From Gemmatimonadota bacterium (lineage in GTDB: Bacteria > Gemmatimonadota > Gemmatimonadetes > Palauibacterales > Palauibacteraceae), in assembly GCA_963666735.1 (NCBI GenBank), contig OY762926.1, positions 2,432,001 through 2,496,000 on the forward strand: a DNA stretch of 64,000 nt, in the 5' to 3' direction. The translations under genes and the position numbers were made by a program. The notes beneath the pieces are model-generated. The model was not told where the DNA came from, made no database searches, and was given only the letters and a program-made list of their open reading frames with translations. How positions within the stretch are numbered: the first letter of the stretch is position 1; the number at the start of each line of letters is the position of its first letter. Positions 40,352 through 54,300 of the stretch are shown here, piece after piece.

Positions 40352-42061
40352 ATGCCCATGCGCGACGTAGCCACGACTCTTGTCCTCGGCGTACTTCCCG
40401 TGACCGCCGCCGGCTGCGGCACCGCGGACGCGGAGAGCCTGGGGAACTCGTCAAGTCAGGAGGCCGCGATGAATGCTCCGGGGTCCATGGCGGGGCGGTC
40501 GACCGTCTACGCTCCGAACGGGATGGTCGCGACGAGCCAGCCCATGGCGTCGAGCGTCGCGCTCGGCGTGCTGCGCGACGGCGGCAACGCCTTCGATGCG
40601 GCAATCGCGGCCTCGTCCGTGCTCTCGCTCGTCGAGCCGCACATGACCGGGCTGGGCGGTGACCTGTGGGCGCTCTTCTGGTCCGCGGAGGAGGGCCGGC
40701 TCGTGGGCCTGGACGCGACGGGCCGGGCCGGCACGAACATGACGCCGGAGCGGATCCGGGCCGACGGATTCGACCGCGTGCCGGGCTCGGGACCGGGGGC
40801 GGTGACCGTGCCGGGCGCGATCGCGGGCTGGGGCGCCCTCAACGAGAAGTACGGCAGCCGTCCGCTCGCCGAACTCGTGGCGCCGGCCATCGCGCTGGCC
40901 GAGGAGGGCTTCCCCGTCACGCCGATCATCGCGGGCCAGTGGCGGGGGCAGTTGAACAAGCTGCAGGCCGACCCCGGGGCCGCCGCGACCTACCTGATCG
41001 ACGGTGAGCGGGCACCCGAAGCGGGTGAGTGGCTCCGGAACCCCGACTTCGCTCGCTCGCTCCGCACGATCGCGGCGGAAGGCCCGTCCGCCATGTACGG
41101 CGGAGCGCTGGGCACGCGCGTGGCCGAGGGACTGGCCGAGCTCGGCGGATACCTGACCCCGGCCGACATGGCGGCGATGGAGGTGCGCTGGATCGAGCCG
41201 TTGTCGATGGACTACAAGGGCTGGACGATCTGGGAGCTGCCACCGGCGGGCCAGGGAGTCGCCGCCCTCCAGATGTTCGGGATGCTCGAGCCGTTCGACC
41301 TCGCGAGCATGGGGCACAACTCGCCCGAATACCTGCACCACCTCATCGAGGCCAAGAAGGTCGCCTTCGCGGACCTGGCCCGGCACGTCGCGGACGCCGA
41401 CCACATGGAGATCGACCCGAAGCAACTCCTCGAGCCCGACTACCTCGCGGCGCGCCGGGCGCTCATCAACCCGGCCGGGGCCGCCGAGCGGATCGAGCCG
41501 GGCGAGTTCGCGACCGCCACCGAGACGATCTACCTCTCCGTCGCGGACCAGTACGGGAACATGGTCTCCTTCATCCACTCCATCTACGGCGCGTTCGGTT
41601 CAGGCGTGGTCGTGCCGGGGACGGGCTTCGTGCTACAGAACCGCGGCGCCGGCTTCACGCTCGAGGACGGGCACCCGAACCAGGTCGCGCCGGGCAAGCG
41701 GCCCTTCCACACGCTCATCCCGGGGTTCGTGACCCGCGACGGAGAGCCGTTGATGGCGTTCGGCGTGATGGGCGGGTCGATGCAGCCGCAGGGGCACACG
41801 CAGGTCGTGCTCAACATGGTCGAGTTCGGGATGGACCCTCAGCAGGCGATCGACGCGGCCCGCTTCCGCCACATGGGCGGGCTGCGCGTCGCGGTCGAGC
41901 GGCTGACCGGCGGACTCGCAAACGACATGAGCGCGCTCGGCCACGAACTCGTGGACTGGGAGAGCGCCTCCTTCGGCGGCGGCCAGCTCGTCATGAAGCT
42001 CGAGCGCGGCTGGGCCGGCGCGTCGGACCCGAGGAAGGACGGCCTCGCCATCGGCCACTGA
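40352..42061 (+). CDS. ggt: Gamma-glutamyltransferase
   Basis: GGNAFDAA, GLGGD, ETIY, QNRG, KRPFHTLIP, GVMGG.MQPQG, SDPRKDG. Confidence 0.95.
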   Translation: MPMRDVATTLVLGVLPVTAAGCGTADAESLGNSSSQEAAMNAPGSMAGRSTVYAPNGMVATSQPMASSVALGVLRDGGNAFDAAIAASSVLSLVEPHMTGLGGDLWALFWSAEEGRLVGLDATGRAGTNMTPERIRADGFDRVPGSGPGAVTVPGAIAGWGALNEKYGSRPLAELVAPAIALAEEGFPVTPIIAGQWRGQLNKLQADPGAAATYLIDGERAPEAGEWLRNPDFARSLRTIAAEGPSAMYGGALGTRVAEGLAELGGYLTPADMAAMEVRWIEPLSMDYKGWTIWELPPAGQGVAALQMFGMLEPFDLASMGHNSPEYLHHLIEAKKVAFADLARHVADADHMEIDPKQLLEPDYLAARRALINPAGAAERIEPGEFATATETIYLSVADQYGNMVSFIHSIYGAFGSGVVVPGTGFVLQNRGAGFTLEDGHPNQVAPGKRPFHTLIPGFVTRDGEPLMAFGVMGGSMQPQGHTQVVLNMVEFGMDPQQAIDAARFRHMGGLRVAVERLTGGLANDMSALGHELVDWESASFGGGQLVMKLERGWAGASDPRKDGLAIGH

Positions 42062-42136
42062 CGGGGCGGCCCTGGGCTCGCGCCCTGGGCTATCCGGCCG
42101 CGCGGGGCATTTCGGCAGGTAGCGGACGTTCTCTCG

Positions 42137-42379
42137 CTACATCCAGATCGTAACCCGCTGGAGATTGAGCCAGAACCGCGCCGACGGGCCGAAGTAGTGC
42201 GACAACCGCAAGGCGGTGTTGGCGGTGATCGCGCGCCTGCCATGGACGATCTGGTTGATGCGGCCGGGAAGCACGCCTATGTCGGTGGCCAAACGATATT
42301 GGCTGATTTCCATTGGATCGAGGAATTCTTCCAGCAGCACTTCGCCGGGGTGCGCGGGCGGCATCCTTGCCGGCGTCAC
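42137..42379 (-). pseudogene. higA: HigA-family antitoxin (XRE HTH), frameshifted near the C-terminus, no higB
   Basis: HPGEVLLEEFL, RINQIVHGRRAITANTALRL..YFG...FWLNLQ; the expected GYDLDVA continues in a shifted frame. Confidence 0.8.
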
Positions 42380-44370
42380 GTTGATGCTTCGACCAGTGGC
42401 TGATTACCGTCTTCTTTCAACTTCGCCCCTCCGGTTTCCTCGCCCTGTCCCTCCGTTGCCACGGCCGGTGCCAAGAAGGGCGACGCGAGTAGCTTTCGCT
42501 TGAAATCACCCTGCCAATCGCTCCCCAGGTTGCCAACGCTTAGGAACTGTTCTCCGATGACGCTCAAGAAGGCTCCCTCGTTTCCGCCACTCACGTGACG
42601 ATTCCGATCCGCACACGCCCTCCCTTGCCCTGCTTGACGCCTTGGAGATGCTTCCAAGAGTAGGTCTGAATCGCACGACACCATACCCGCCTTCCACGGC
42701 CCTGTCTCGTTCTCTGCATGGACAACTTGGTATTCGACCGCATGAAACCCGGCATCCTCCAACGCCTGGAACAACGCGATCCAAGCCGTTGGCTCCTTGT
42801 TCGCGTAGCTGAATACGAACCGTCCATCTGATTCGAGGACACGATGAATCTCTCGAAATAGGTTGCTAAGCAGTCCCCGATAGGACTCCACGTCACCTGC
42901 GTTCCCGTTCACACGGTTGACGGCCGCATCGCCTCTTCCGTCGTGTACGCCGAGTTTCGCCCACGCGCGAAGCGGCATAGATAGTTCTCCATACTGGACA
43001 TCGTCATGATACGGAGGGTCCGTCAGGACGAGATTGACGACAGCGTCTGGCAAGGCCATACGCTCTGAACTGCCGAGCACGACACGTGCTGCCACGTCCT
43101 CCGTCAAGGCGCTTCTAGGACTCGACGAATCCCACGGTCCTTCTACCAAGACCGAATTACCCACTTCACTCCTTAGCCAGTCCGACGCTTTTGCCATTGC
43201 CCGCACCCTCTGCGAGAACGTTCCTCGACCATATCGGTAGGCGCCCCAGACGTTGGGCTCCGCCGACAGAGTCGTAAAGTTAAAGCGATGCAACGCCATG
43301 GTCTCGTAGTTCTTGAGGTACCAACGATCCCATCGTGAAGCATACCCGGCTGTCTCGGCGACGCCGACCGCTGCCAGCTCCAACGCCATCAAGACGGGTT
43401 CAGTCACGTCGAGTGCTGCCACCGCCTGCAGCAGTGACTCCAGCACCGCTCTTTGTCTAGCTGGATATAGAGACTCCCAGTTCTGAAATCCATGTCGCAG
43501 CAACACGCGCGTTTCCACGCCAAGGGGTATGGGTCCGAGATTCGTCGTTGGATTCCACGGCCTATCCTTGCTTCGCTCGATCTCGCCCTCAGACGGGTGC
43601 GACAGCTCCCGCTGTTCCCGGCCTGCTCTCTGCACTAGGATCGGCAGCCACGTTACGCCCCGTCGCATTAGGTCCGCCAACGAGGACTCCAAGCCGCAGC
43701 TTGGGCATGTAGTTCTTCGCCCAACCAAGTATCGTTCGTCGGGGTCAACCCATTCCGTACACTCCACACATTTGCGGGCGCGAATGTTTGACCGAAACAA
43801 ATGACCCCTGCGGCACGCGAGAAACGCTTCTCCGGCCTTGGTCTCCTTACGCTTTACCAACGAGGTCATCGCATATGGATAGAGTCGTCGTTCAATTCCA
43901 CACCTCGGACATGTCGCGGCAGCTACCCGCACGGTGTGGGTAACGATACCGTCATGACCCGAAGCCATCTCCGTCTTGTACGCCTCATCGAGCAGGGGTT
44001 GAAGCTTAGCTTCGAGTTGACGTTTTGCTTCCAGCAATTCGTCTGACGGCGGTAGACGGAGCGTCGTCGCAAGCCCGTGAGCCACCCACGAATTGATGTC
44101 CTGTGCGTAGATTTGATATCCGCGTGCCAACGCCGCGAAGGCTACGATGCCACCACCGACGAACGGGTCCGCGACTAGCCCCCCTTCGCCGCGAAGTCGC
44201 TTGTACGCTGCAAGGATCGAATCCGTGACTGCCATCGTCCTACGCGCCCACCATCGATACGACGACACTGGCGGGACTATTTTCTCCCGCTGCCTCGTTT
44301 CTGACCGCGCGCGTGCACCTACTCTTTCGGGGCGCAACTGCGCTAGGATGCTCGAACGCCGATCGCTCAT
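42376..44370 (-). CDS. DUF1156/COG1743-like adenine DNA methyltransferase with Zn ribbon
   Basis: RWWARR, DPFVGGG (motif I), CPRC/CVEC/CPSC, TDPPY (motif IV). Confidence 0.88.
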   Translation of the reverse strand: MSDRRSSILAQLRPERVGARARSETRQREKIVPPVSSYRWWARRTMAVTDSILAAYKRLRGEGGLVADPFVGGGIVAFAALARGYQIYAQDINSWVAHGLATTLRLPPSDELLEAKRQLEAKLQPLLDEAYKTEMASGHDGIVTHTVRVAAATCPRCGIERRLYPYAMTSLVKRKETKAGEAFLACRRGHLFRSNIRARKCVECTEWVDPDERYLVGRRTTCPSCGLESSLADLMRRGVTWLPILVQRAGREQRELSHPSEGEIERSKDRPWNPTTNLGPIPLGVETRVLLRHGFQNWESLYPARQRAVLESLLQAVAALDVTEPVLMALELAAVGVAETAGYASRWDRWYLKNYETMALHRFNFTTLSAEPNVWGAYRYGRGTFSQRVRAMAKASDWLRSEVGNSVLVEGPWDSSSPRSALTEDVAARVVLGSSERMALPDAVVNLVLTDPPYHDDVQYGELSMPLRAWAKLGVHDGRGDAAVNRVNGNAGDVESYRGLLSNLFREIHRVLESDGRFVFSYANKEPTAWIALFQALEDAGFHAVEYQVVHAENETGPWKAGMVSCDSDLLLEASPRRQAGQGRACADRNRHVSGGNEGAFLSVIGEQFLSVGNLGSDWQGDFKRKLLASPFLAPAVATEGQGEETGGAKLKEDGNQPLVEAST

Positions 44371-44389
44371 ACTAACCGACCATCCCTCC

Positions 44390-44598
44390 TCAAGTGTCCA
44401 CGTGATCCAACTCTAGAGGCAGTCCCTGCATGAGCAAGGCGCGATCCAATAGCAGCTCCACCGACGTCCATCTGCCGACCGGCATACCATTTCTGTCGCG
44501 TGGTAGAGCGCCCGCTATCGCTTCATACTGACACCATCCACGAGCCTTCACGATACCGCTGGCGAACCGATCGCACACCATGAGAACCCAACGTTCAT
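44390..44598 (-). pseudogene. 3' part of DUF3883-type nuclease gene, separated by an IS
   Basis: In frame with 46631..45938 after IS removal: ...NEAERGERDERWVLMVCDRF... Confidence 0.85.
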
Positions 44599-44719
44599 CT
44601 CTGGAGCTGTCCCGCTTTCACGGACGGTTAGTTTCTGTGGTTGATCGCCTCCGGTTCTTCTCCTTTCAGCCTCCCTCAGGCGCTCGGGAGAGGATGTCGG
44701 TGCGCGCCGCGGGTGCGCC

Positions 44720-45568
44720 TCAGGCCGCATGGTTGCTCTCGTAGTCGGCCGGCGACTCGTAGCCGAGTGCCGAGTGCAGCCGCCGGGTGTTGTAGAAGCC
44801 CTCGATGAAGCCGAAGACCTCCCGTCGCGCCTCATCCGCCGTGCGGAACGAGCGCTTCCAGATCAGCTCGCACTCGAGGGTGGCGAAGAAGCTCTCGCAC
44901 ATGGCGTTGTCGTACGCATCGCCCGCCGAGCCCATGGACTGGGCGATGCCCGACTCGCGGCAGCGCTCCCCGAAGGCGAGCGAGGTGTACTGCGAGCCCC
45001 TGTCGGAATGATGCACGACACGACCCTCGGGACGACGCCTTGCGAGAGCCATCGCCAGCGCGGTCTCGACGAGCTCGGTCCGCATGTGCGTCGCCATGGC
45101 CCAGCCGACGACGCGGCGGCTCCAGACGTCGAGCACGACGGCCAGATACAGCCAGCCAGCCCACGTGGGGACGTAGGTGATGTCGGCCACCCACAGCTCG
45201 TCGGGCCCCGAGGCCGAGAAGTCACGGTCCACCAGGTCCGGCGCGGGGCGGGCCTCGGTATCCCTCTTCGTCGTCGCCGTCTTGAAGCGCCGCCTGGTCG
45301 CGCCCTCGATCTCCAGCCCCCTCATCAGCCGCCCCACGCGCTTCTGCCCCACCCGCTCGCCCTCGGCCCTGAGCGCCGCGTGGATCCGCGGACGGCCGTA
45401 CGTCTCGCCGCTGCCGGTCCATATCTTCGCGATCCGGGCCTCCAGTTCCGCGTCCCGACGCGCGCGGTCCGAGGGAGGACGCCTCAACCAGTCGTAGTAG
45501 CCGCTGGGGGAGAGACCCAGCACCCGGCACATGGCCCGAAGCGGGAACTCGGCCCGGTGCGCCCTCAT
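44720..45568 (-). CDS. IS3 transposase OrfB (DDE/rve)
   Basis: YGRPRI, WVADITY, HHSDRGSQY, DNAMCESFF..LE.E, FYNTRRLHSALGY. Confidence 0.95.
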   Translation of the reverse strand: MRAHRAEFPLRAMCRVLGLSPSGYYDWLRRPPSDRARRDAELEARIAKIWTGSGETYGRPRIHAALRAEGERVGQKRVGRLMRGLEIEGATRRRFKTATTKRDTEARPAPDLVDRDFSASGPDELWVADITYVPTWAGWLYLAVVLDVWSRRVVGWAMATHMRTELVETALAMALARRRPEGRVVHHSDRGSQYTSLAFGERCRESGIAQSMGSAGDAYDNAMCESFFATLECELIWKRSFRTADEARREVFGFIEGFYNTRRLHSALGYESPADYESNHAA

Positions 45569-45879
45569 GAACGCATACCCCCGCCGGGGATCGATCCGCT
45601 CTCCCTCGCGAACCAGGCCGCGGCTTTTTTTAGGATGTCGCGCTCCATCCTGAGCCGCTTGTTCTCCCGCTCCAGGCGCCGCAACTCGCTGCGCGCCTCC
45701 GTTGTCAGCCCGTCGCTACGGAACCCCTCGTCCACATCCGCCTGCCGGACCCAGTTCCGGATCGTCTGCTCCGACGGCTCGAACTTCCGGGCGAGTGACG
45801 CGGCACTACGCCCGCCCCTCACCAGTTCCACCAGCCGCTCCCTGTACTCGGATGGATACCGCCCCTTCCGGCCCGCCAT
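45565..45879 (-). CDS. IS3 transposase OrfA (HTH) with A7G -1 frameshift site
   Basis: YPSEYRE...TIRNWV...ELRRLERENKRLRMERDILKKAAAWF; AAAAAAAG at 45631-45624. Confidence 0.95.
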   Translation of the reverse strand: MAGRKGRYPSEYRERLVELVRGGRSAASLARKFEPSEQTIRNWVRQADVDEGFRSDGLTTEARSELRRLERENKRLRMERDILKKAAAWFARESGSIPGGGMRS

Positions 45880-45937
45880 GGAACACCTCCTTGCTTGACC
45901 CCAATGGATAGGTGTCCGTCAAAGCGGGGCAACTCCA

Positions 45938-46631
45938 CTCTCTCGCCTCGCTCTGCCTCGTTGCGGCTCAAGAACACCCTCGCTGGCTCTCGGCCTCTAG
46001 ATTGAGTCTTCACCTCGATTCGCACCGTAGTACCTGACAGATTTGGTGTAACCACATCGTACCCGAGTTGATCCGACACCTCACTTACGACGGCGACCCG
46101 CCGAGCCAAGTCCGGCCGTCCGCGTCGCGTAAGATAGTCTCTGCAGGCCTCCGCTACATATCGTTCTCCTTCACGTCCGACTTTCCGTAGCGCCTCGGCA
46201 TCGACCTTCTTCGCGACTGCCATCAAGATTTCGTCACGTCGACGCTGATCAGGACAGATGCTCCTGAGCCGTGTGTCAACACCTTCCGGAACGTATTCCC
46301 AACGCGCTTCTTCCCACCCTGCAGCGACAACCCATCCCGGACGCTCCCGCAATAGCAGCGTCTCAACGATCACCAGGATCGCATCCTCCTCAGGCAGTCG
46401 TGCGATCCTCCTTGCCGCGTCGGACACCAATAGCTGTCCGTCTTGTTTCCTCAATAGGCCTGCTCGCTCCAATATGGCCCTACCCTTGTCCAGCTCCATC
46501 GCTCCGTACACCCCGTCGCTCGGATCGTTGATGTACGCCGAGTGCAGCGTCTCCATAGTCTCACCGGCGTCGTCCACTAGGCTGATCACGCGTACCGCCG
46601 CTCGGCAGATGTGAGACGTGGGAAAACTCAC
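45938..46631 (-). pseudogene. 5' part of DUF3883-type PD-(D/E)XK nuclease gene, IS-interrupted
   Basis: GREGERYV...VSDQLGYDV...IEVKT...FLSRNE; GTG start overlaps the helicase stop. Confidence 0.85.
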
Positions 46632-48517
46632 GGCTCGTCCCGCTCCGCTCCTCGAAGATGGGCCAGCACTGCCGATATGTCTCTCGCGTCCTCCACTGGT
46701 GCTCCATATTCCTCTTCATCGGGAAGCGCCATCGTAGCAATGTCCCCGTCCTCCAGCATCGTTCCAAGACGCTCAGCTTTTGCACGAACGCGTTCGTCGA
46801 TTACTTCGTCGATCGTATTCTCCGTCACCAAAAGAGTGATCCGCGTCTCCACATCAGGTCCTAGGCCCAATCGATGAATGCGATCCACACTCTGAAGATA
46901 TTGTCCCGCGTTGAACGTTCGTTCCAAGTAGATTGCGTCGTGACAAACCTGATGAAGGCTAATACCCTCGCCTGCGGCGGCCGGGTTGGCGATCATTACC
47001 AAGCACGCATCGTCGTTCCGGAACTTCCGCAGTTCGCCAATGCGATCCCGGTCGCCCTCCTTTTGTGCCTCCACAGGGATGCCTCCGTGAATCACGGCAG
47101 GATTAAGTTGTCTTAGCAACCTTTCGAGCGTCGCAATGTTTCGGACGAAATTGGTCCAAATCAATGTCTTGCGACCCTTTGTGGCATTAGCGTGGACCAG
47201 GTTCGCCAAGATCTCGAACTTCTGAGGGGTCTCGTAGGAACCGAACGACGTCAACAGGTCCACCAAATGACCTTGCTCTGGGAGTGGAAGAGGTGGATGT
47301 CGGAATACAATCGGGTCGAGTGGAGACGATCCCGCAACCAGAAGAGCGGGGTTTGTCGCCGCTTCTATCAGGTACATGACAATCCTGCCCATTCTTGCTA
47401 GAGATGCTTGGTCCGCCCTGCCCATCTCAAACGCACCAGCGTACTGGTTTCGAATGGCTTGGTACACATCTCGTTGTAGCCCGATCAGCGGCACCCTGAG
47501 GGCCTTGAATTCCGGCGGTCGCAAACCCAACTCCGCCTTGCGGGTTCTGACGAATATGGGGCGTATCGCCTCCGACACTCCCGCTACGACCTCAGGCGCC
47601 GCACTCCGCAAGTCACGCCGCGACGGAACGAGACGACGCCCAACGGTAGGCCAAAGGAAATCCAGAAGTGCGAGAAGATCCTCGGGACTGTGTGGTGCAG
47701 GTGTGCCGGTAAGGACATCTCGTCGCTCGGCCACAAACGCCAAATTCAAGCAAGCCCGTCCCCACTTCCCGTCCCAGCCCCTCTTTACTCGATGCGCTTC
47801 GTCAAGAACGACATGGGTCGCCTGCCCTCCAACCCAGCGTGACACGGCTTCATAGGCCCGATCTGTCGCCAGTCGCTGATAATTGATCAGGACAACCTCG
47901 GCTCGAAGACTAATCTCGTCGTCGAAGACTTCAATCGTCGGTGGTTGCTGAAAGCACTCATTCGCCTCTGACATCCACGCGTCGAATGACGAGATCGGTC
48001 CGACCACCAAGAGGGACTGGACCCGGCCCGCAAGGCGTTCCGCTTCGTAGACTCCGAAGGTTACCGTCGTCTTGCCTGCCCCAGGCACCGAGAAGTTCGC
48101 GCCGTGCGACAAGGCCAACAGCTTAGCCACGTCGCGTACTTGGAAGTCTCTTAATTCTCGGACGAAGCGGCCCCCCGCCAACCTGGCCGCTACTTCAAGT
48201 GTTGATACTGGCGAGGTTGGGCCGTACGCTTCGTCCAGTTGGTCGCCTAGTGCCGCCAGGCCCGTGAGAACGGCTCGTACTTGATCATCGGGACAGATTC
48301 GAAGTTTGTAACGCAAGCAAATCGTGCGAAGCGCTCCCGTGAAGGCGAGAAACGTGTCCAGCGGTACGGTCAGACGACCCTCTGTCGTAGATGCCTGAGC
48401 GCCATATAGCCCGCGTAAGCGTAGCCAGACTACATGGCGATCCTGAGCCTGTAGAGAGAGCGTTACCGACGACGCTGCGCGATCCAAGCGCAACGTGAGT
48501 TGGCCCGCGGACGCCAC
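46628..48517 (-). CDS. SNF2-family (SF2) helicase/ATPase
   Basis: LRDFQ, SVPGAGKT, LDEAH, LTGTP, AAGEGISL, QSVDRIHRLG. Confidence 0.93.
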   Translation of the reverse strand: MASAGQLTLRLDRAASSVTLSLQAQDRHVVWLRLRGLYGAQASTTEGRLTVPLDTFLAFTGALRTICLRYKLRICPDDQVRAVLTGLAALGDQLDEAYGPTSPVSTLEVAARLAGGRFVRELRDFQVRDVAKLLALSHGANFSVPGAGKTTVTFGVYEAERLAGRVQSLLVVGPISSFDAWMSEANECFQQPPTIEVFDDEISLRAEVVLINYQRLATDRAYEAVSRWVGGQATHVVLDEAHRVKRGWDGKWGRACLNLAFVAERRDVLTGTPAPHSPEDLLALLDFLWPTVGRRLVPSRRDLRSAAPEVVAGVSEAIRPIFVRTRKAELGLRPPEFKALRVPLIGLQRDVYQAIRNQYAGAFEMGRADQASLARMGRIVMYLIEAATNPALLVAGSSPLDPIVFRHPPLPLPEQGHLVDLLTSFGSYETPQKFEILANLVHANATKGRKTLIWTNFVRNIATLERLLRQLNPAVIHGGIPVEAQKEGDRDRIGELRKFRNDDACLVMIANPAAAGEGISLHQVCHDAIYLERTFNAGQYLQSVDRIHRLGLGPDVETRITLLVTENTIDEVIDERVRAKAERLGTMLEDGDIATMALPDEEEYGAPVEDARDISAVLAHLRGAERDEP

Positions 48518-49327
48518 CTAGATCGCGCCGATCTTGTCATACTGCGCGCGCAGGTCTCGGACCGCTTTTTCAAGCTTGCGTACTCTGTAGGTGAAGTCGT
48601 TTCGATCGAACGCCGAATCCTCCATCGCGGTTCTTAGCTGCGACCGGGCTCGTCGGATCTTGCCTGTGGCTTCCTTCAGCCTATTGCCCGGTGCTTCCGC
48701 CGCCTGCTCCCGTGCGTGATCTTGCTTCGCCAGTTCGGCGGCTCCATCCAACACTTGGCGAACCTGTTCGCGAATTCGATCACGATGTACTGTGACACGG
48801 GCGTCTCCCGTTCTTGCGTGGGGCGTATACTCCTCCAGGCCCGCCAGCCAAGTAAGGAAGGGCTCCGGATCTGAGCCCTCGCTCTCGGTTTCCGCCGAAG
48901 CACCGAGCAGGCCTAGGTTAAGATCATCCTCCGCCGTCTCTTCGGCGCTGCCAAATACCGCTTCGGTGGGCAGGAAGGTGCTTAGGTCCTGATCTTCGGA
49001 GAGGGCCGGCGCAAGATACGATTCGAAGAAATGCTCATTCATTTGTCGCAAGACCATGTAGCCGGATTCCAGGATGATACCGATAAAGCGCGTTGACCGC
49101 AGGCGGTCGGCCGCGTCGGGATCGTCCTTCTTCAGCTTCTCGTACGACGTGTCCAGTTCCTCCAGCGAGACCCGTTGATCATCAAAGACTTCATAGCTGA
49201 TTCTGTCCTGCGAGATCCCTTGAATCTCTCGAATCATGGAGAGGATTCGAATGGCCTGTTCAACCCTCGCGACGCCCTTTCGCATATGTGTCAGATCTGA
49301 AGACTGAGCATACCGAAGCATGAGAGC
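48518..49327 (-). pseudogene. 3' part of ParB-like protein gene, IS-interrupted
   Basis: In frame with 51227..50661 after IS removal (...HPLDGI|ALMLRYAQS...); helical, with an acidic linker and coiled-coil-like end. Confidence 0.85.
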
Positions 49328-49381
49328 GATTGAAGTGACCCCAAGAAGTTGGACACCCGACCTCCGGGTTTATTGTGCTGC

Positions 49382-50308
49382 TCAGCCCTCTCGGTAGAGG
49401 TCCTCGATGATGGTCATGGGTGGCCGGTCTCCGAGGGAGGAGTGACGGCGTACCCGATTGTAGTAGTTGATCCGGTCGCGGACGACGGCCGCGAGTTCCT
49501 CGACCGAGCCGGCGTCGAGGATCAGAGACCTGTTCTCCACCTTGAAGCGGCCGAAGAAGCTCTCCATCTCCGGGTTGTCCCTCGGTCCGCGCAGCGCGTA
49601 GGAGAGCCGCGCGCCCGCCGACAGCAGCCGGCGGGTCCATGCATAGCCGGTGAACACCGGGTCCCGGTCCTGGTGGACGATGATCCCGTCCAGCGAGTGC
49701 CGGAGGCGGGCCAGGGTCCGCTCCGCCGCCGTCCAGGCCGAGAGCGCCAAGCCGGAGTCGGCCGACGCTCCAACGGCGAAGCCCGCGACGTACTTCGTCG
49801 CGTGATCGAGGATGGGGATCAGCCACGCCTTGCTCGTCCCGCCGGCGTGGACGAGTTCGGTGAAGTCGGTGTAGAAGACCTCCAGCGGCCCCATCTCCGC
49901 CTTCGGCCGTCCCGACAACAGGTTCGCGCGCGGCCCCGCCGCGTCTATGGCCCGCCGGACCGCGCTCGGCTTCGGCCGCGTAACCGTACGCCTCAAGGGC
50001 AGATCCCACAGCCGGTGCAGCCGCGCCACGACCTTCCGGTTCACCCGGTGGCCGTACGTCTCCCGGAGTTCCGCGGCGGTTCGCCGGTACCCGTACTCCG
50101 GGTGCGCCTCGGCGATCGCCTTGAGCGGCGCCTCCAGGTGCGCGTATTTCTCCGCGTACGGCACTCTCGTCCGCGTGTGGTGGTACCACGTCGAGCGCGC
50201 CAGCTCCACCGCCCGCAGCGACGGCCCCAGGCCGTACGCCCCATGCGTTCCGGAGACGAGCGCCGCCTTCTCAGCCACGCTCAGCCGCTCCGGCCCAAGA
50301 AGTTTTTT
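49382..50308 (-). CDS. IS3-family transposase OrfB (DDE), entered by -1 frameshift
   Basis: YGYRR, YTDFTE, HQDRD, DNPEMESFFGRFKVE, YYNRVRRHSSLG; AAAAAAC slippery site at 50308-50302. Confidence 0.9.
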   Translation of the reverse strand, partial: KKLLGPERLSVAEKAALVSGTHGAYGLGPSLRAVELARSTWYHHTRTRVPYAEKYAHLEAPLKAIAEAHPEYGYRRTAAELRETYGHRVNRKVVARLHRLWDLPLRRTVTRPKPSAVRRAIDAAGPRANLLSGRPKAEMGPLEVFYTDFTELVHAGGTSKAWLIPILDHATKYVAGFAVGASADSGLALSAWTAAERTLARLRHSLDGIIVHQDRDPVFTGYAWTRRLLSAGARLSYALRGPRDNPEMESFFGRFKVENRSLILDAGSVEELAAVVRDRINYYNRVRRHSSLGDRPPMTIIEDLYREG

Positions 50309-50559
50309 AAAAGGGCGATCTCCACCTCCTTCTTGCCCAGAAGCTGCTCCAGGTCCCGGATCCGGCGCTCGTACTCCTTCACCGTCGTCTCCCGGGCGAA
50401 GACCTCCGGCGCCCGGTCCACGAACCGCCGCCTCCAGAGCTGTACCGAGTTCGGGTGCACCCCGTACGCCTTGGCCACCTGCCCGGGCGTCTTCTCGCCA
50501 CCCAGGACCTCCAGCACCACCTGTGCCTTCAGCTTGGGCGTGTACCGCCGCCGTGCCAT
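50281..50559 (-). CDS. IS3-family transposase OrfA (HTH)
   Basis: RRYTPKLKAQVVLE...VAKAYGVHPN...W...IRDLEQLLGKKEVEIALLKNF. Confidence 0.92.
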   Translation of the reverse strand: MARRRYTPKLKAQVVLEVLGGEKTPGQVAKAYGVHPNSVQLWRRRFVDRAPEVFARETTVKEYERRIRDLEQLLGKKEVEIALLKNFLGRSG

Positions 50560-50660
50560 GTCGACCTCCTTCCGGTCTGCCGGGTTCTACCCTGCGCAGC
50601 ACCGCGCCCGGAGGTCAAACGTCACAATGGTGGGGTGTCCAGGATCTGGGGGTCATATCC

Positions 50661-51227
50661 GATTCCATCCAGCGGATGTTCGTAGGTCGTGTGGAGCTCT
50701 TCCACGAACAACAGTTGATTCGTGAACGTGTAGTTTTGCTTGAACTCTCGCGTCATTTGGAGTTTGAGCTCCAATTCAGCGATTTCACGCTCGGTCGCAG
50801 CAGGTGGAAGAACAGCAACACGGATGTAGTCGTTATTCAGGTCACCAAGCGCAACAGCGCGCCGGTTGCCGTTCACCAAGAGGCCGGTTCTAGTGACGAC
50901 GCCGGGTTGTCGCTGTCCTTCCTCGGCAAGATTTGCCTTGAGGTCCTCGTAAGTGTCGTCTTTACGTATCAAGTCGGCGAGGATTTCTTGAGCGGCGGCT
51001 TCCGTCGGGGCGGTCTGCACCGCATCCCTACCGGGATGGGATGCCAATTGGGCCTGGAGGCGGTGGCTACGGTGATTCAACACAACGGCGTCCATCCGGA
51101 GACGTACAACGTCGCAGAGCTGCTGAGTACCTTTCCAAGGGATCCGGTGACGTTCGCGTTCTCCGGATGAGTCATTGAGTTCGTCAATTATCTGCTGTTG
51201 GCGGTTGTGTCGAGAAAGCGGTGCCAT
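50661..51227 (-). pseudogene. 5' part of ParB/Srx-like protein gene, IS-interrupted
   Basis: GGAGG RBS; LKANLAEEGQRQPGVVTRTGLLVNGNRRAVAL, a ParB/Srx GxRR-type motif. Confidence 0.82.
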
Positions 51228-51311
51228 CCGGACGCCTCCGTAAGGTTGCGATGAGCAGGTGAAGAAGAAGGTGAAACTACGGAAGTCTCAAAGTATGTCC
51301 CGAGCCCCAAG

Positions 51312-54300
51312 TCAGGTTGACAAGCGGCGGCCGGGGGTCCAGGGGGCCCCGGCCGCTTCGAGCGCACTCTCGGCGCCGGCGAAGGCGCCGTCCATGAAGT
51401 TCGCGAACTCCGACATCCACGCGCCGAAGTCCGTTTCGGCGATCTCCAGGTTGCGGCGGTGGGTGTCGGTCGGCGTCTGCCGCGTGTCCCAGTGGCCGCC
51501 GATCACCCGGCCCACGCGGTTCGAGATCGAGGGTACGGTGGACTCGTTGAGGCGCTGCCGGGCCGGGTCCCCGAAGAGACGGATCGAGAAATCCTGGAGG
51601 CTGGCGCCGAGCGCATCCAGTTCGCCGAAGAGTTCGAGCGAGGCGTTCGGCGCCTCGAGGAGCGCGGCCCGCATGTGACGCAGCCGGTCCCGGGCGCGGC
51701 CCACCTCCTCGCCCGCCGAGGCGATGCGGCGCCTCAACTCCGACGCCTCGTTCTGGAAGGCGACGACGGCCCCGAAGTCGGTGCCGGCCTCGGTCGTGGG
51801 CACGGCCACCACATCGAAGGTCTGCGCCAGGCCGACCTCCCGCGCGCCTTCGGCCGTGACGACGACGAGTTGCGCGGAGTATTCGCCGGGGGCGACGAGG
51901 GGCCCCTGCGGCGGTCCCACCCACGGCGGCGTGAAGCCGGGCACCGTGAGGTCGATCGGGTCGGGTGCCGGGGCGCGCAGGTCCCAACTCACGCGGTGCA
52001 GGCCCTGCCTGGCGGGAGCGGCGAGCCAGCGCACGGTGCCACCATCGGAGTCGGCGATCGCGATCAGCGCCCTCGGGCCGCTCTCGGTCGCCTCCTCGTG
52101 CAGCGCGTCGTAGCCGGGGAACGCCACGTCCCCGCCCTGGTCCCGCACCATCCGCTCGGCCGCGCGGCGCGCTTCGGTCGCCGTCGTCACCGTCTCGGGC
52201 AGGTAGTAGGTGAGGGTGGCCCCGAAGTCCGGGTTCGGCGCCGTGTAGTCGTCCGACCCCAGCGTCGGCTTGCCGCGGGCCTGCATGGGGACCGATGGGA
52301 TGTACCACCAGGCGTCGCGGATCGGGAACACAGCCCCTCCCTCCGCCGCGGCCATGGCCGTGTTCGTGCCCCCGGCGAGTTCGCGCAGCGGAGTGTAGTC
52401 GTCGAGCACGTAGAAGCCACGGCCGAAGGTCGCGCCGACCACGTCGTTGTCGCGGCGCTGGACTTCCAGATCGCGGTGCGGGATGGTGGGACCGGGCAGC
52501 AGGTGCCAGTTCGCGCCGCCGTTCACGCTCGCGTACATGCCGAACTCGGCCCCGAGAAAGAGCAGGTTCGGGTTCAGGTGATCCTGCTCGATCGCCCACG
52601 CGATCGTCCCGTCGGGCAGATCTCCCGCGATCGAACGCCACGTCCGGCCCGCGTCGTTGCTCTCGAACACGAGCGGCCGGAAGTCGCCCTCCTTGTGGTT
52701 GTCCGCCACGGCGAAGACCGTCGCCGCGTCGAACTGCGACGCCTCCACGTCGTTGATGAACGCCCGTTCGGGCACGCCGGGAAGGGCGTTCGCGAGCCGC
52801 CAGTTCGCCCCGTCGTCCTCCGTCACGTGGATGAGTCCGTCGTCGCTCCCCGTGTAGATCACGCCCGCCGTCACCGGTGATTCGGAGATCCCCGTGAGCG
52901 TCGCGTACTTGGACATGGCGCCGTTGTCGATGAGGTCGTCGACGCTCCATACGCGGCCCATGAACTCCAGTTCGTAGCGGTTCACGTTCGTCGTCAGATC
53001 GCCGCTGATCGCCGTCCACGAGTTGCCCCGGTCGTCGGAGCGCCACACGCGCTGCGAGCCGTGGTAGATGCGGTCGGCGTCGTGCGGGCTGATGAGGACC
53101 GGCGCGTCCCAGTTCCAGCGCTCGGGCGGGTCGCCGGGCGCGGGCTGCGCCTGGATGTCCAGCGCCTCTTCGCTCTCCCGGTCGTAGCGGTAGAGGTTTC
53201 CCTGCTGCGTCTGCAGGTAGAGGATGTCCGGATCCCTCGGGTCGATCTGGACCGCGTACCCGTCGGCCCCCATGGGCGCGTACCAGTCCCGGTTCCGCAC
53301 GCCCTCGACGTTGGTGGTGCGGGCGGGCCCCCACAGGGTGCCGAGGTCCTGCGCGCCGCCGAGCACGTGGTAGAACGGCTCCGCGTTGTCGAGGGCGAGC
53401 TTGTAGAACTGCGAGATCGGCAGGTTCGGGAAGTGCCGGAACGTGCGGCCGTCATCGAAGCTCTCGTACAGGCCGGCGTCCGTCCCGACGAGCAGGTGCA
53501 GGGCGTCCTCCGGGTCGATCCAGAGGGCGTGGTTGTCGCTGTGTTTGTCGCGCGCCGTCTCGAGGTTCCCGAACGTCGCGCCTCCGTCCCGCGTGACCTG
53601 GATGAAGACGTCCATCTGGTACACGACGTCCGCATCGTGCGGGGAGGCTTCGATCTCCTGGTAGTAGTGGGGACCGGTGCCGCCGGAGATGTACGAGTTC
53701 CGCCGCTCCCAGCTCTCTCCCTTGTCGAGCGAACGGTAGAAGCCGCGCTCGTCGTCGTTCGCCTCCATGGTGGCGTACACGACCTCGGGGTTCGCGGGGG
53801 TGACCGCGAGTCCGATCTTTCCCACGTCGCCCGTCGGGAGTCCCGCCGAGATCCGGCGCCAGCTCTCCCCGCCATCGGTGGACTTGTAGATGCCCGAGTT
53901 GGGGCCGCCGGCGAGGTGCCCCCAGATCTTCCGGCGACGCTCGTACGCCGCCGCATAGACCATGTCCGGATTGCCGGGCGCGAATTCGATGTCGGTGACG
54001 CCCGTGTTCTCGTCGATCTCCAGCACGAGCCGCCAGGAGTCGCCGCCGTCGGTGGACTTGTACACGCCGCGGTCGCCGCCCGGAGCCCAGAGCGACCCCT
54101 CCGCAGCCACCAGGATGACATCGCTGTCGCGCGGGTCGACGAGGATCTTCCCGATGTGCTGCGAGTCGGCGAGACCGACGTTCTCCCACGTCTCCCCGCC
54201 GTTGCGGCTGCGGTAGACGCCGTCCCCCCAGCCGACGTGGCGCCCGCTGACGTTCTCTCCCGTCCCCACCCAGACCACATCCGGGTTGTTGGGATCGATC

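Follow-up and report, generated by a model that had tools for sequence, protein, structure and literature searches.

A 9.3-kb insert in a window of 64,000 nt from a Gemmatimonadota bacterium (GCA_963666735.1, contig OY762926.1, 2,432,001-2,496,000 of the forward strand; coordinates below are those of this window) carries a cassette of four genes, all on the minus strand, that encode a ParB-like protein, an SNF2 helicase, a DUF3883 nuclease and a DNA methyltransferase (MTase). Our analysis favors, with a probability of about 0.55, the reading of this cassette as a methylation-protected, motor-driven restriction system that is related to AbiR and inactive in this genome. We observe the four genes themselves, their folds, the conserved catalytic motifs, the association with an MTase and two breaks by insertion sequences (ISs).

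In the proposed mechanism, the MTase would mark a short site in host DNA, and the mark is probably N6-methyladenine (m6A), as judged from the DPPY motif. The ParB-like protein is predicted to act as a nucleotide-gated DNA clamp that shuts around DNA where the mark is missing, because it combines a ParB domain, a helix-turn-helix (HTH)-like middle and a C-terminal helical hairpin in the domain order of ParB clamps. From the unmarked site the SNF2 ATPase would translocate and deliver or unlock the winged-helix PD-(D/E)XK nuclease, which would cut the incoming DNA. Where a partner with a restriction endonuclease (REase) fold is present, this partner would read the site; in the four-gene form, since the partner was not found there, the reading would fall to the ParB-like protein, the MTase or the winged helix.

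All motifs quoted in an earlier note on this DNA were located in the four proteins and assigned residue positions. In the ParB-like protein, NGNRR occupies residues 119-123 and many family members have NANTR in its place, and R56, Q105, N119, N121 and R123 are invariant across 74 sequences. R123 and the predicted structure of P0001, an intact homologue, reveal a ParB/Srx fold with the Box II GxxR arginine. The P0001 model (predicted local distance difference test score 90.5) includes an acidic linker, modelled with low confidence, and a helical hairpin at its C-terminus, and it aligns with PadC (Z 9.9, root-mean-square deviation (rmsd) 2.6, 95 residues aligned), KorB (Z 9.5) and pNOB8 ParB 5K5D (Z 9.4, rmsd 3.6, 204 residues aligned, the middle region included). 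The top row of the Foldseek search with the ParB-like model was also 5K5D (E 1.8e-3); at E 0.001, Foldseek returned nothing for the ParB-like or the nuclease model, and Pfam gave no family match on P0001. The helicase contains GAGKT at residue 146, DEAH at 239 and QSVDRIHRLG at 542, together with the subfamily signature NFSVPG[AS]GKT, which two ordinary SNF2 proteins encoded in this genome lack. The nuclease matches PF13020 (DUF3883/NOV_C) above the cut-off and contains SDQLGYD at 186 and IEVK at 205; its model consists of a winged helix and an Hjc-like domain (Z 10.4) with an E...D...E-x-K active site, in which E164, D198, E212 and K214 are invariant across 51 aligned sequences. In the MTase, WWARR lies at residue 40 and motif I DPFVGGG at 68, followed by a Cys-rich insert with clusters at 154, 186, 201 and 222 and then by DPPY at 451. 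Weak matches to the PglXI, HmaB and NF042963 (DUF1156-related) models suggest that it is a distant relative of the PglXI/HmaB/DUF1156 MTases.

The co-orientation and tight coupling claimed in the earlier note are real: the TAG stop of the ParB-like gene, which ends at 48518, stands directly against the helicase GTG at 48517, the helicase stop and the nuclease start overlap as GTGA, and 19 bp separate the nuclease stop (44390) from the MTase ATG (44370). The island is also AT-richer as described, with a GC fraction of 0.579 for the cassette minus its IS elements versus 0.685 for the genome. Two IS3-family elements, a and b, both with Pfam HTH_Tnp_1 and rve domains, break the ParB-like and nuclease genes, respectively. 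Element a has one other full copy in the genome at 100% identity, which fixes its ends, whereas element b has 11 other full copies at more than 99% identity. Element a is inserted just past the ParB domain, and the 5' part of the ParB-like gene as it stands runs into the element to a stop at 50622 (201 aa). Without element a the frame is open over 458 aa and is 89% identical to P0001 with zero gaps; without element b the nuclease frame is open over 300 aa. According to the homologue model, element b would spare the catalytic residues and cut off the last strands of the nuclease sheet. Because the two elements split the ParB-like and nuclease genes, this copy of the cassette is probably dead, and its cutting arm is very likely inactive in this genome. 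The idea that selection spared the MTase was rejected, as two random insertions miss the MTase 46% of the time. A promoter scan gave 0 sites (shuffles, 1.7). The genome as a whole is rich in IS3-family elements: element b is present in 12 near-identical copies and a 72% relative in at least 8.

Features of the insert, in window coordinates
Feature	Position	Strand	Description
ParB-like gene, 5' part, codons 1-189	50661..51227	-	ParB/Srx nucleotide-binding domain, NGNRR (GxxR-type)
IS3-family element a, 1330 bp, two ORFs (open reading frames)	49331..50660	-	3-bp target duplication ATC
ParB-like gene, 3' part	48518..49330	-	HTH-like helical middle, acidic linker, C-terminal helical hairpin
SNF2-family ATPase, intact, 629 aa	46628..48517	-	subfamily signature NFSVPGAGKT, also in AbiR-like plasmid helicases
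Nuclease gene, 5' part, 231 codons	45938..46631	-	winged helix and most of the DUF3883/NOV_C PD-(D/E)XK domain, catalytic residues included
IS3-family element b, 1336 bp	44602..45937	-	3-bp target duplication GAG
Nuclease gene, 3' part, 69 codons	44390..44601	-	last strands of the nuclease sheet (homologue model)
Amino-methyltransferase, intact, 664 aa	42376..44370	-	WWARR, motif I DPFVGGG, Cys-rich insert, motif IV DPPY
HigA-like antitoxin remnant	42158..42364	-	apparently frameshifted near its end, without higB
Whole insert	42064..51323		flanked by ggt (gamma-glutamyltransferase, convergent; end at 42061) and a VPS10/BNR-repeat gene (end at 51312)

Our comparison across genomes reveals that the ParB-like/SNF2 pair is a constant core, and that the MTase and the nuclease are its exchangeable partners. 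The ParB-like profile matches 1829 protein clusters (50% identity) at E 0.001 and 1192 at 1e-10. In GTDB, 321 stretches matched, of which the best 80, from six phyla, were kept. The helicase gene directly follows the ParB-like gene in 78 of these 80 loci, the remaining two stopping at a contig edge, and it does so in all 63 of the 81 metagenome/viral loci that have at least 700 bases downstream. A first metagenome scan with P0001 as the only query gave no match, and phage records gave just three weak partial matches. The DUF3883 gene follows in 59 of the 80 loci by profile and in two more by tblastn, while a winged-helix HNH-like gene, so labelled from a reading of its consensus and without a Pfam match, replaces or accompanies it in 13; the effector thus differs among loci (DUF3883, HNH-like or PLD). 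The complete set of four window genes is present in 35 of the 80 loci. The same four-gene order, which the earlier note had proposed to seek across taxa, recurs in 15 of the 80, indicating that the arrangement is more than chance, and three loci have the window's order without a fifth gene. Flanking genes include Shedu, Kiwa, GmrSD, AbiEii, TIR, STAND and HEPN, and integrases and relaxases are common neighbours.

Several variants of the arrangement were also observed. Four alphaproteobacterial loci (L003, L005, L011 and L014) have ParB-like, SNF2 and MTase genes and no DUF3883 gene, two of them with Shedu nearby. In cultured Streptomyces (L064-L080), a winged-helix HNH-like gene stands with ParB-like and SNF2 genes and a C5 MTase near the DruM models. 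The IMG/VR contig L105:2547-7920 carries ParB-like, SNF2 and DUF3883 genes and then a GIY-YIG gene, with no MTase seen. A 920-aa helicase-nuclease fusion at L016 was rejected as the product of a frameshift.

Linkage to an MTase is the second recurrent property of the family. An MTase lies within 2.6 kb of the core in 74 of the 80 GTDB loci, and five of the six loci lacking one are truncated by contig ends; among uncut metagenome/viral loci, 13 of 15 have an MTase, L107 being ambiguous. The enzymes are of different kinds: 39 belong to the window's family, 16 are Eco57I-like N6 MTases, 19 are C5 MTases (L003 is counted twice) and one is an N6/N4 MTase (L034). Members of the window's family are placed downstream on the same strand in 22 loci, downstream on the opposite strand in 10, and upstream in 5 and 2. 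Over the three profiled classes, the MTase class changes twice on the ParB tree, which is the minimum (shuffled mean 29.6), and likewise twice, again the minimum, on the helicase tree (shuffled mean 28.1). Both are quick trees with long-branch warnings, the former of 90 rows (16 unlabelled) and the latter of 84 rows (14 unlabelled, 4 split ORFs excluded). This tracking of the MTase class shows a long partnership rather than co-evolution. The locus L034:8904-16269 represents a recent partner swap: it has the REase-fold partner in duplicate and an N6/N4 MTase from a different family, within a clade that otherwise carries the window's MTase family.

The REase-fold partner, encoded by a gene of 380 aa, occurs in 27 loci, including 24 of the 39 with the window's MTase family, and in none of the Eco57I-like or C5 loci. 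Its nearest named look-alikes, BanI (0.94) and DpnII (0.93), serve as a lead only, and a PDB sequence search with its alignment gave 0 matches. The alignment has no conserved acidic pair at the expected active site, and the partner may be a dead reader. Neither this genome nor 12 others with partner-less loci, mostly of uncertain completeness, gave a match to it, while both of the two controls matched. A search for the target site by word avoidance in 73 cassettes gave no clear signal; the control GCCGGC, which we take to be the expected depleted word of the Streptomyces C5 group, was missing from the most depleted words, making the test uninformative.

The closest described relative is AbiR of the Lactococcus lactis plasmid pKR223, which comprises AbiRa, AbiRb, AbiRc and M.LlaKR2I (PMC13064643, PMC13712998, PMC10925250, each in its accessible part). 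As described in the accessible part of PMC13064643, AbiRb superimposes on 5K5D, AbiRc joins a nuclease domain to SNF2 and AbiRa is sigma70-like; AbiR requires the LlaKR2I methylase, is toxic without it and lowers phage DNA replication. The same 2026 review, in that part, still calls the mechanism unclear although AbiR has been known since 2000. In addition, pairs like AbiRb/AbiRc that lack AbiRa are left unassigned in SAR11 (accessible part of PMC13712998). Compared with AbiR as these sources present it, the cassette has the same 5K5D-like ParB-fold protein followed by an SNF2 ATPase, a nuclease and a tie to a DNA methylase. The differences are that it has no sigma70-like AbiRa, for which the insert leaves no room upstream; that its 629-aa helicase has no PLD match, unlike the homologue on plasmid L084; that its nuclease is a separate winged-helix DUF3883 protein; and that its MTase is a Cys-rich amino-MTase within the operon, as opposed to a type II restriction-modification (R-M) methylase. 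M.LlaKR2I is presumably a C5 enzyme.

Searches with the window proteins matched 14 plasmid records. Among these, Bacillota plasmids carry dcm, ParB-like, PLD-SNF2 and MutH/Sau3AI genes (L084), dcm, Sau3AI, ParB-like and PLD-SNF2 genes (L086), or genes for a sigma70-r4 protein, ParB-like and SNF2 (L088). On two other plasmids (L082:483-8497 and L083:1828-10079), the pair stands directly behind a type III mod-res system, and a nuclease of its own was not recognised. The AbiR-like plasmid loci are reciprocal best matches of the core and have the subfamily motifs in common with it. The family profile scores all seven plasmid ParB-like proteins at 62-93 bits; conversely, the profiles built from seven Bacillota plasmid pairs rank the window's ParB piece first of 20126 frames (E 2.5e-16, the next 3.6) and the window's helicase first of 20126 (1.9e-64, the next 4e-22), and the ParB profile misses the canonical ParB of the genome. 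No protein named AbiRc was among the 120 matches listed, and no AbiR-named PADLOC model matches the plasmid look-alikes. We consider homology to AbiR itself highly probable. As two AbiR features, AbiRa and the PLD domain, are missing, we do not file the cassette as AbiR; it is an unnamed AbiR-related family that would work like AbiR.

Several observations weigh against the favored reading. The subfamily is known here from genes and predicted structures alone, and the accessible literature classes AbiR as abortive infection and not as restriction (PMC13064643). The link to AbiR consists of architecture and look-alike plasmid loci, with the authentic pKR223 proteins outside the comparison, and identity between the ParB-like proteins and those of Bacillota is 23-30%, mostly in the N-terminal domain. 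No MTase was found near the core at L017 or on contig L105, and 4 of the 39 loci with the window's MTase family have no DUF3883 gene. The clustering on the trees can be explained by linkage alone, the kin being non-independent and the loci the best 80 of 321. Defence genes are frequent among the 112 flanking proteins scanned (of 146 candidates), but this is a raw tally without a control set. Finally, complete R-M systems of type II or III, each equipped with a nuclease, are present at many loci, a situation that better fits a guard.

Such a guard is the strongest rival to the restriction reading, and we regard it as unlikely, if well short of negligible. In this model, the ParB-like protein, SNF2 ATPase and effector watch the MTase or the methylation of the host and kill or arrest the cell when a phage blocks or outruns methylation, and the module would also act in addiction. 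The abortive nature of AbiR and its toxicity without M.LlaKR2I (PMC13064643, accessible part) point this way, as do the exchangeable effector and the complete R-M systems of many kinds that the core adjoins, including type III mod-res (L082, L083), dcm with MutH/Sau3AI (L084, L086), NgoMIV (L081), NgoFVII (L061) and XamI (L062). However, any R-M system would be expected to be toxic once its MTase is missing. Moreover, the four-gene form and 13 of the 16 Eco57I-like loci, whose flanking ORFs were scanned in part, have no recognised second nuclease, which argues that the module is their sole cutting arm.

The two other alternatives account poorly for the linkage to an MTase. A modification-dependent, type IV-like nuclease, whose winged helix would read a foreign base modification with the core assisting and the MTase as a travelling companion, accords with the combination of winged helix and PD-(D/E)XK domain and with winged-helix nuclease fusions that can sense m6A (PMC11037411, as far as accessible); we nevertheless hold it very improbable, as it leaves unexplained an MTase that is present in 74 of 80 loci and whose class tracks both core trees, and DpnI is only a weak row in the fold search (E 0.15). 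Equally improbable is a non-defence module for mobile-element maintenance, partition or DNA repair with incidental R-M adjacency, which would suit the ParB fold and domain order of the first gene, the neighbouring integrases and relaxases and the plasmid records, and which is opposed by the lack of a ParA family among the Pfam matches listed for the 112 flanking proteins, by the lack of an integrase or replication gene within the 9.3-kb insert, and by a nuclease with a conserved active site and an MTase, neither of them a partition part.

The cassette was acquired horizontally and then destroyed by the two IS insertions in this genome. A helicase match was absent from all 60 relatives searched, and of 400 further genomes in the phylum the ParB-like profile matches two, weakly. 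From 33 congener genomes with a match, 13 loci were examined: the insertion site is empty in 10, with the flanking genes about 45 bases apart, and the other three contain a 0.1-kb remnant in one case and other DNA at the site in two. One of these two, L098, holds higBA at the site, next to 60 bases copied from the 3' end of ggt, which suggests an integration site there, and the cassette site looks like an insertion hotspot. In the window, the higA remnant starts 11 bases past the MTase stop. Contigs from four runs of three studies, of which one run is possibly the source and one carries the label sponge metagenome, stop at the IS junctions and contain the four genes without listed letter changes. 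No joint skipping either element is listed in the contigs of these runs, and contigs drop rare variants; the IS-broken form is thus common to the sampled populations, and the contig data leave an intact form possible. RNA runs were absent among the listed matches of runs holding the locus.

Two further regions of the genome contain related genes. At C1:3628000-3646600 (-), a second SNF2 gene is grouped with a frame of 1125 aa and a related MTase, which scores 118.7 bits against the family profile; the group is possibly another restriction-like system. At C1:208009-209232 (-), a match to the MTase profile (90.5 bits) directly adjoins another copy of element b and is perhaps a second broken MTase gene.

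Within this genome alone, the finding is a modest one. The family sets AbiR in the context of more than 1000 protein clusters, includes compact four-gene versions that are easy to test, and would employ a ParB-type clamp in the discrimination of self from non-self DNA. More tentatively, and with odds that we place below even, the family may be a large unnamed restriction class of which AbiR is the one described outlier, and in which a nucleotide-gated sliding clamp of the ParB type loads at unmethylated sites and feeds an SNF2 motor and an exchangeable effector. If so, one core plugs into at least four kinds of MTase and several nucleases, and the clamp of the four-gene form itself reads methylation, as ParB reads parS. 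The present analysis adds the precise positions of the IS breaks, the vacant insertion site in congeners, the distribution of MTase classes over both core trees, the reciprocal profiles, and the four-gene form without a separate reader.

We further compared the cassette with other known systems. The earlier note had proposed an undescribed defence system; what holds is a conserved, mobile, restriction-like module that is unnamed in PADLOC 2.0.0, while its core resembles the described AbiR. Novelty had been sought in the added nuclease-MTase module, and it does not lie there, both parts being swappable and the core resembling AbiRb/AbiRc. No model of PADLOC 2.0.0, NCBIfam or Pfam names the system, all matches being to generic domains, and the four-gene cassette is undescribed in the literature searched, which included the supplements of PMC12704722 and covered subscription papers and some supplements thinly. 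By comparison with ParB, Noc and KorB, the CTP-gated clamps, the first protein has a similar ParB fold, GxxR-type motif, HTH-like middle and helical C-terminus (PMC12704722, accessible part), and it differs in having no ParA partner, in its length of 458 aa and in forming a separate family without a Pfam model. Such folds bind CTP, ATP or GTP, with a preference that the accessible part of PMC12704722 treats as unpredictable from sequence.

The suggested link to Azaca falls away, since ZacA is a DUF6361 protein (bioRxiv 2025.07.10.664194, accessible part) and the ParB-like protein has no Pfam match; membership was rejected, the cassette having a ParB fold instead of DUF6361 and no Zac model among its PADLOC matches. 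What Azaca has in common with the cassette is an SNF2-class NTPase acting with a nuclease, but the accessible parts of its descriptions mention no MTase, and they report that modified T4 DNA is preferred (bioRxiv 10.1101/2025.07.10.664194; PMC10925250). The Hma and type-1 BREX-related (DUF499) systems combine, like the cassette, an SNF2 helicase, a PD-(D/E)XK nuclease and a DUF1156-related adenine MTase (PMC12839542, accessible part), whereas the cassette has a ParB-fold protein and a 629-aa helicase without a fused nuclease. Membership was rejected here because the cassette has no DUF499 AAA+ ATPase, and PF04465 (DUF499) was not found in the whole genome, which is 94% complete. Its MTase keeps WWARR but has no Pfam DUF1156 match at E 0.1 and scores 45 bits with NF042963, for which the cut-off is 1000. 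Membership in DISARM or BREX was likewise rejected, the cassette having no DrmA, DrmB, DrmC, PglZ or BrxC; the absence of DUF499, DISARM and BREX hallmark genes had been noted correctly before. The DrmD and BrxH matches are limited to the C-lobe of the helicase. What DISARM and BREX share with the cassette is a defence of several genes that involves methylation and an SNF2 helicase; the exchange of adenine for cytosine MTases is likewise known between DISARM classes.

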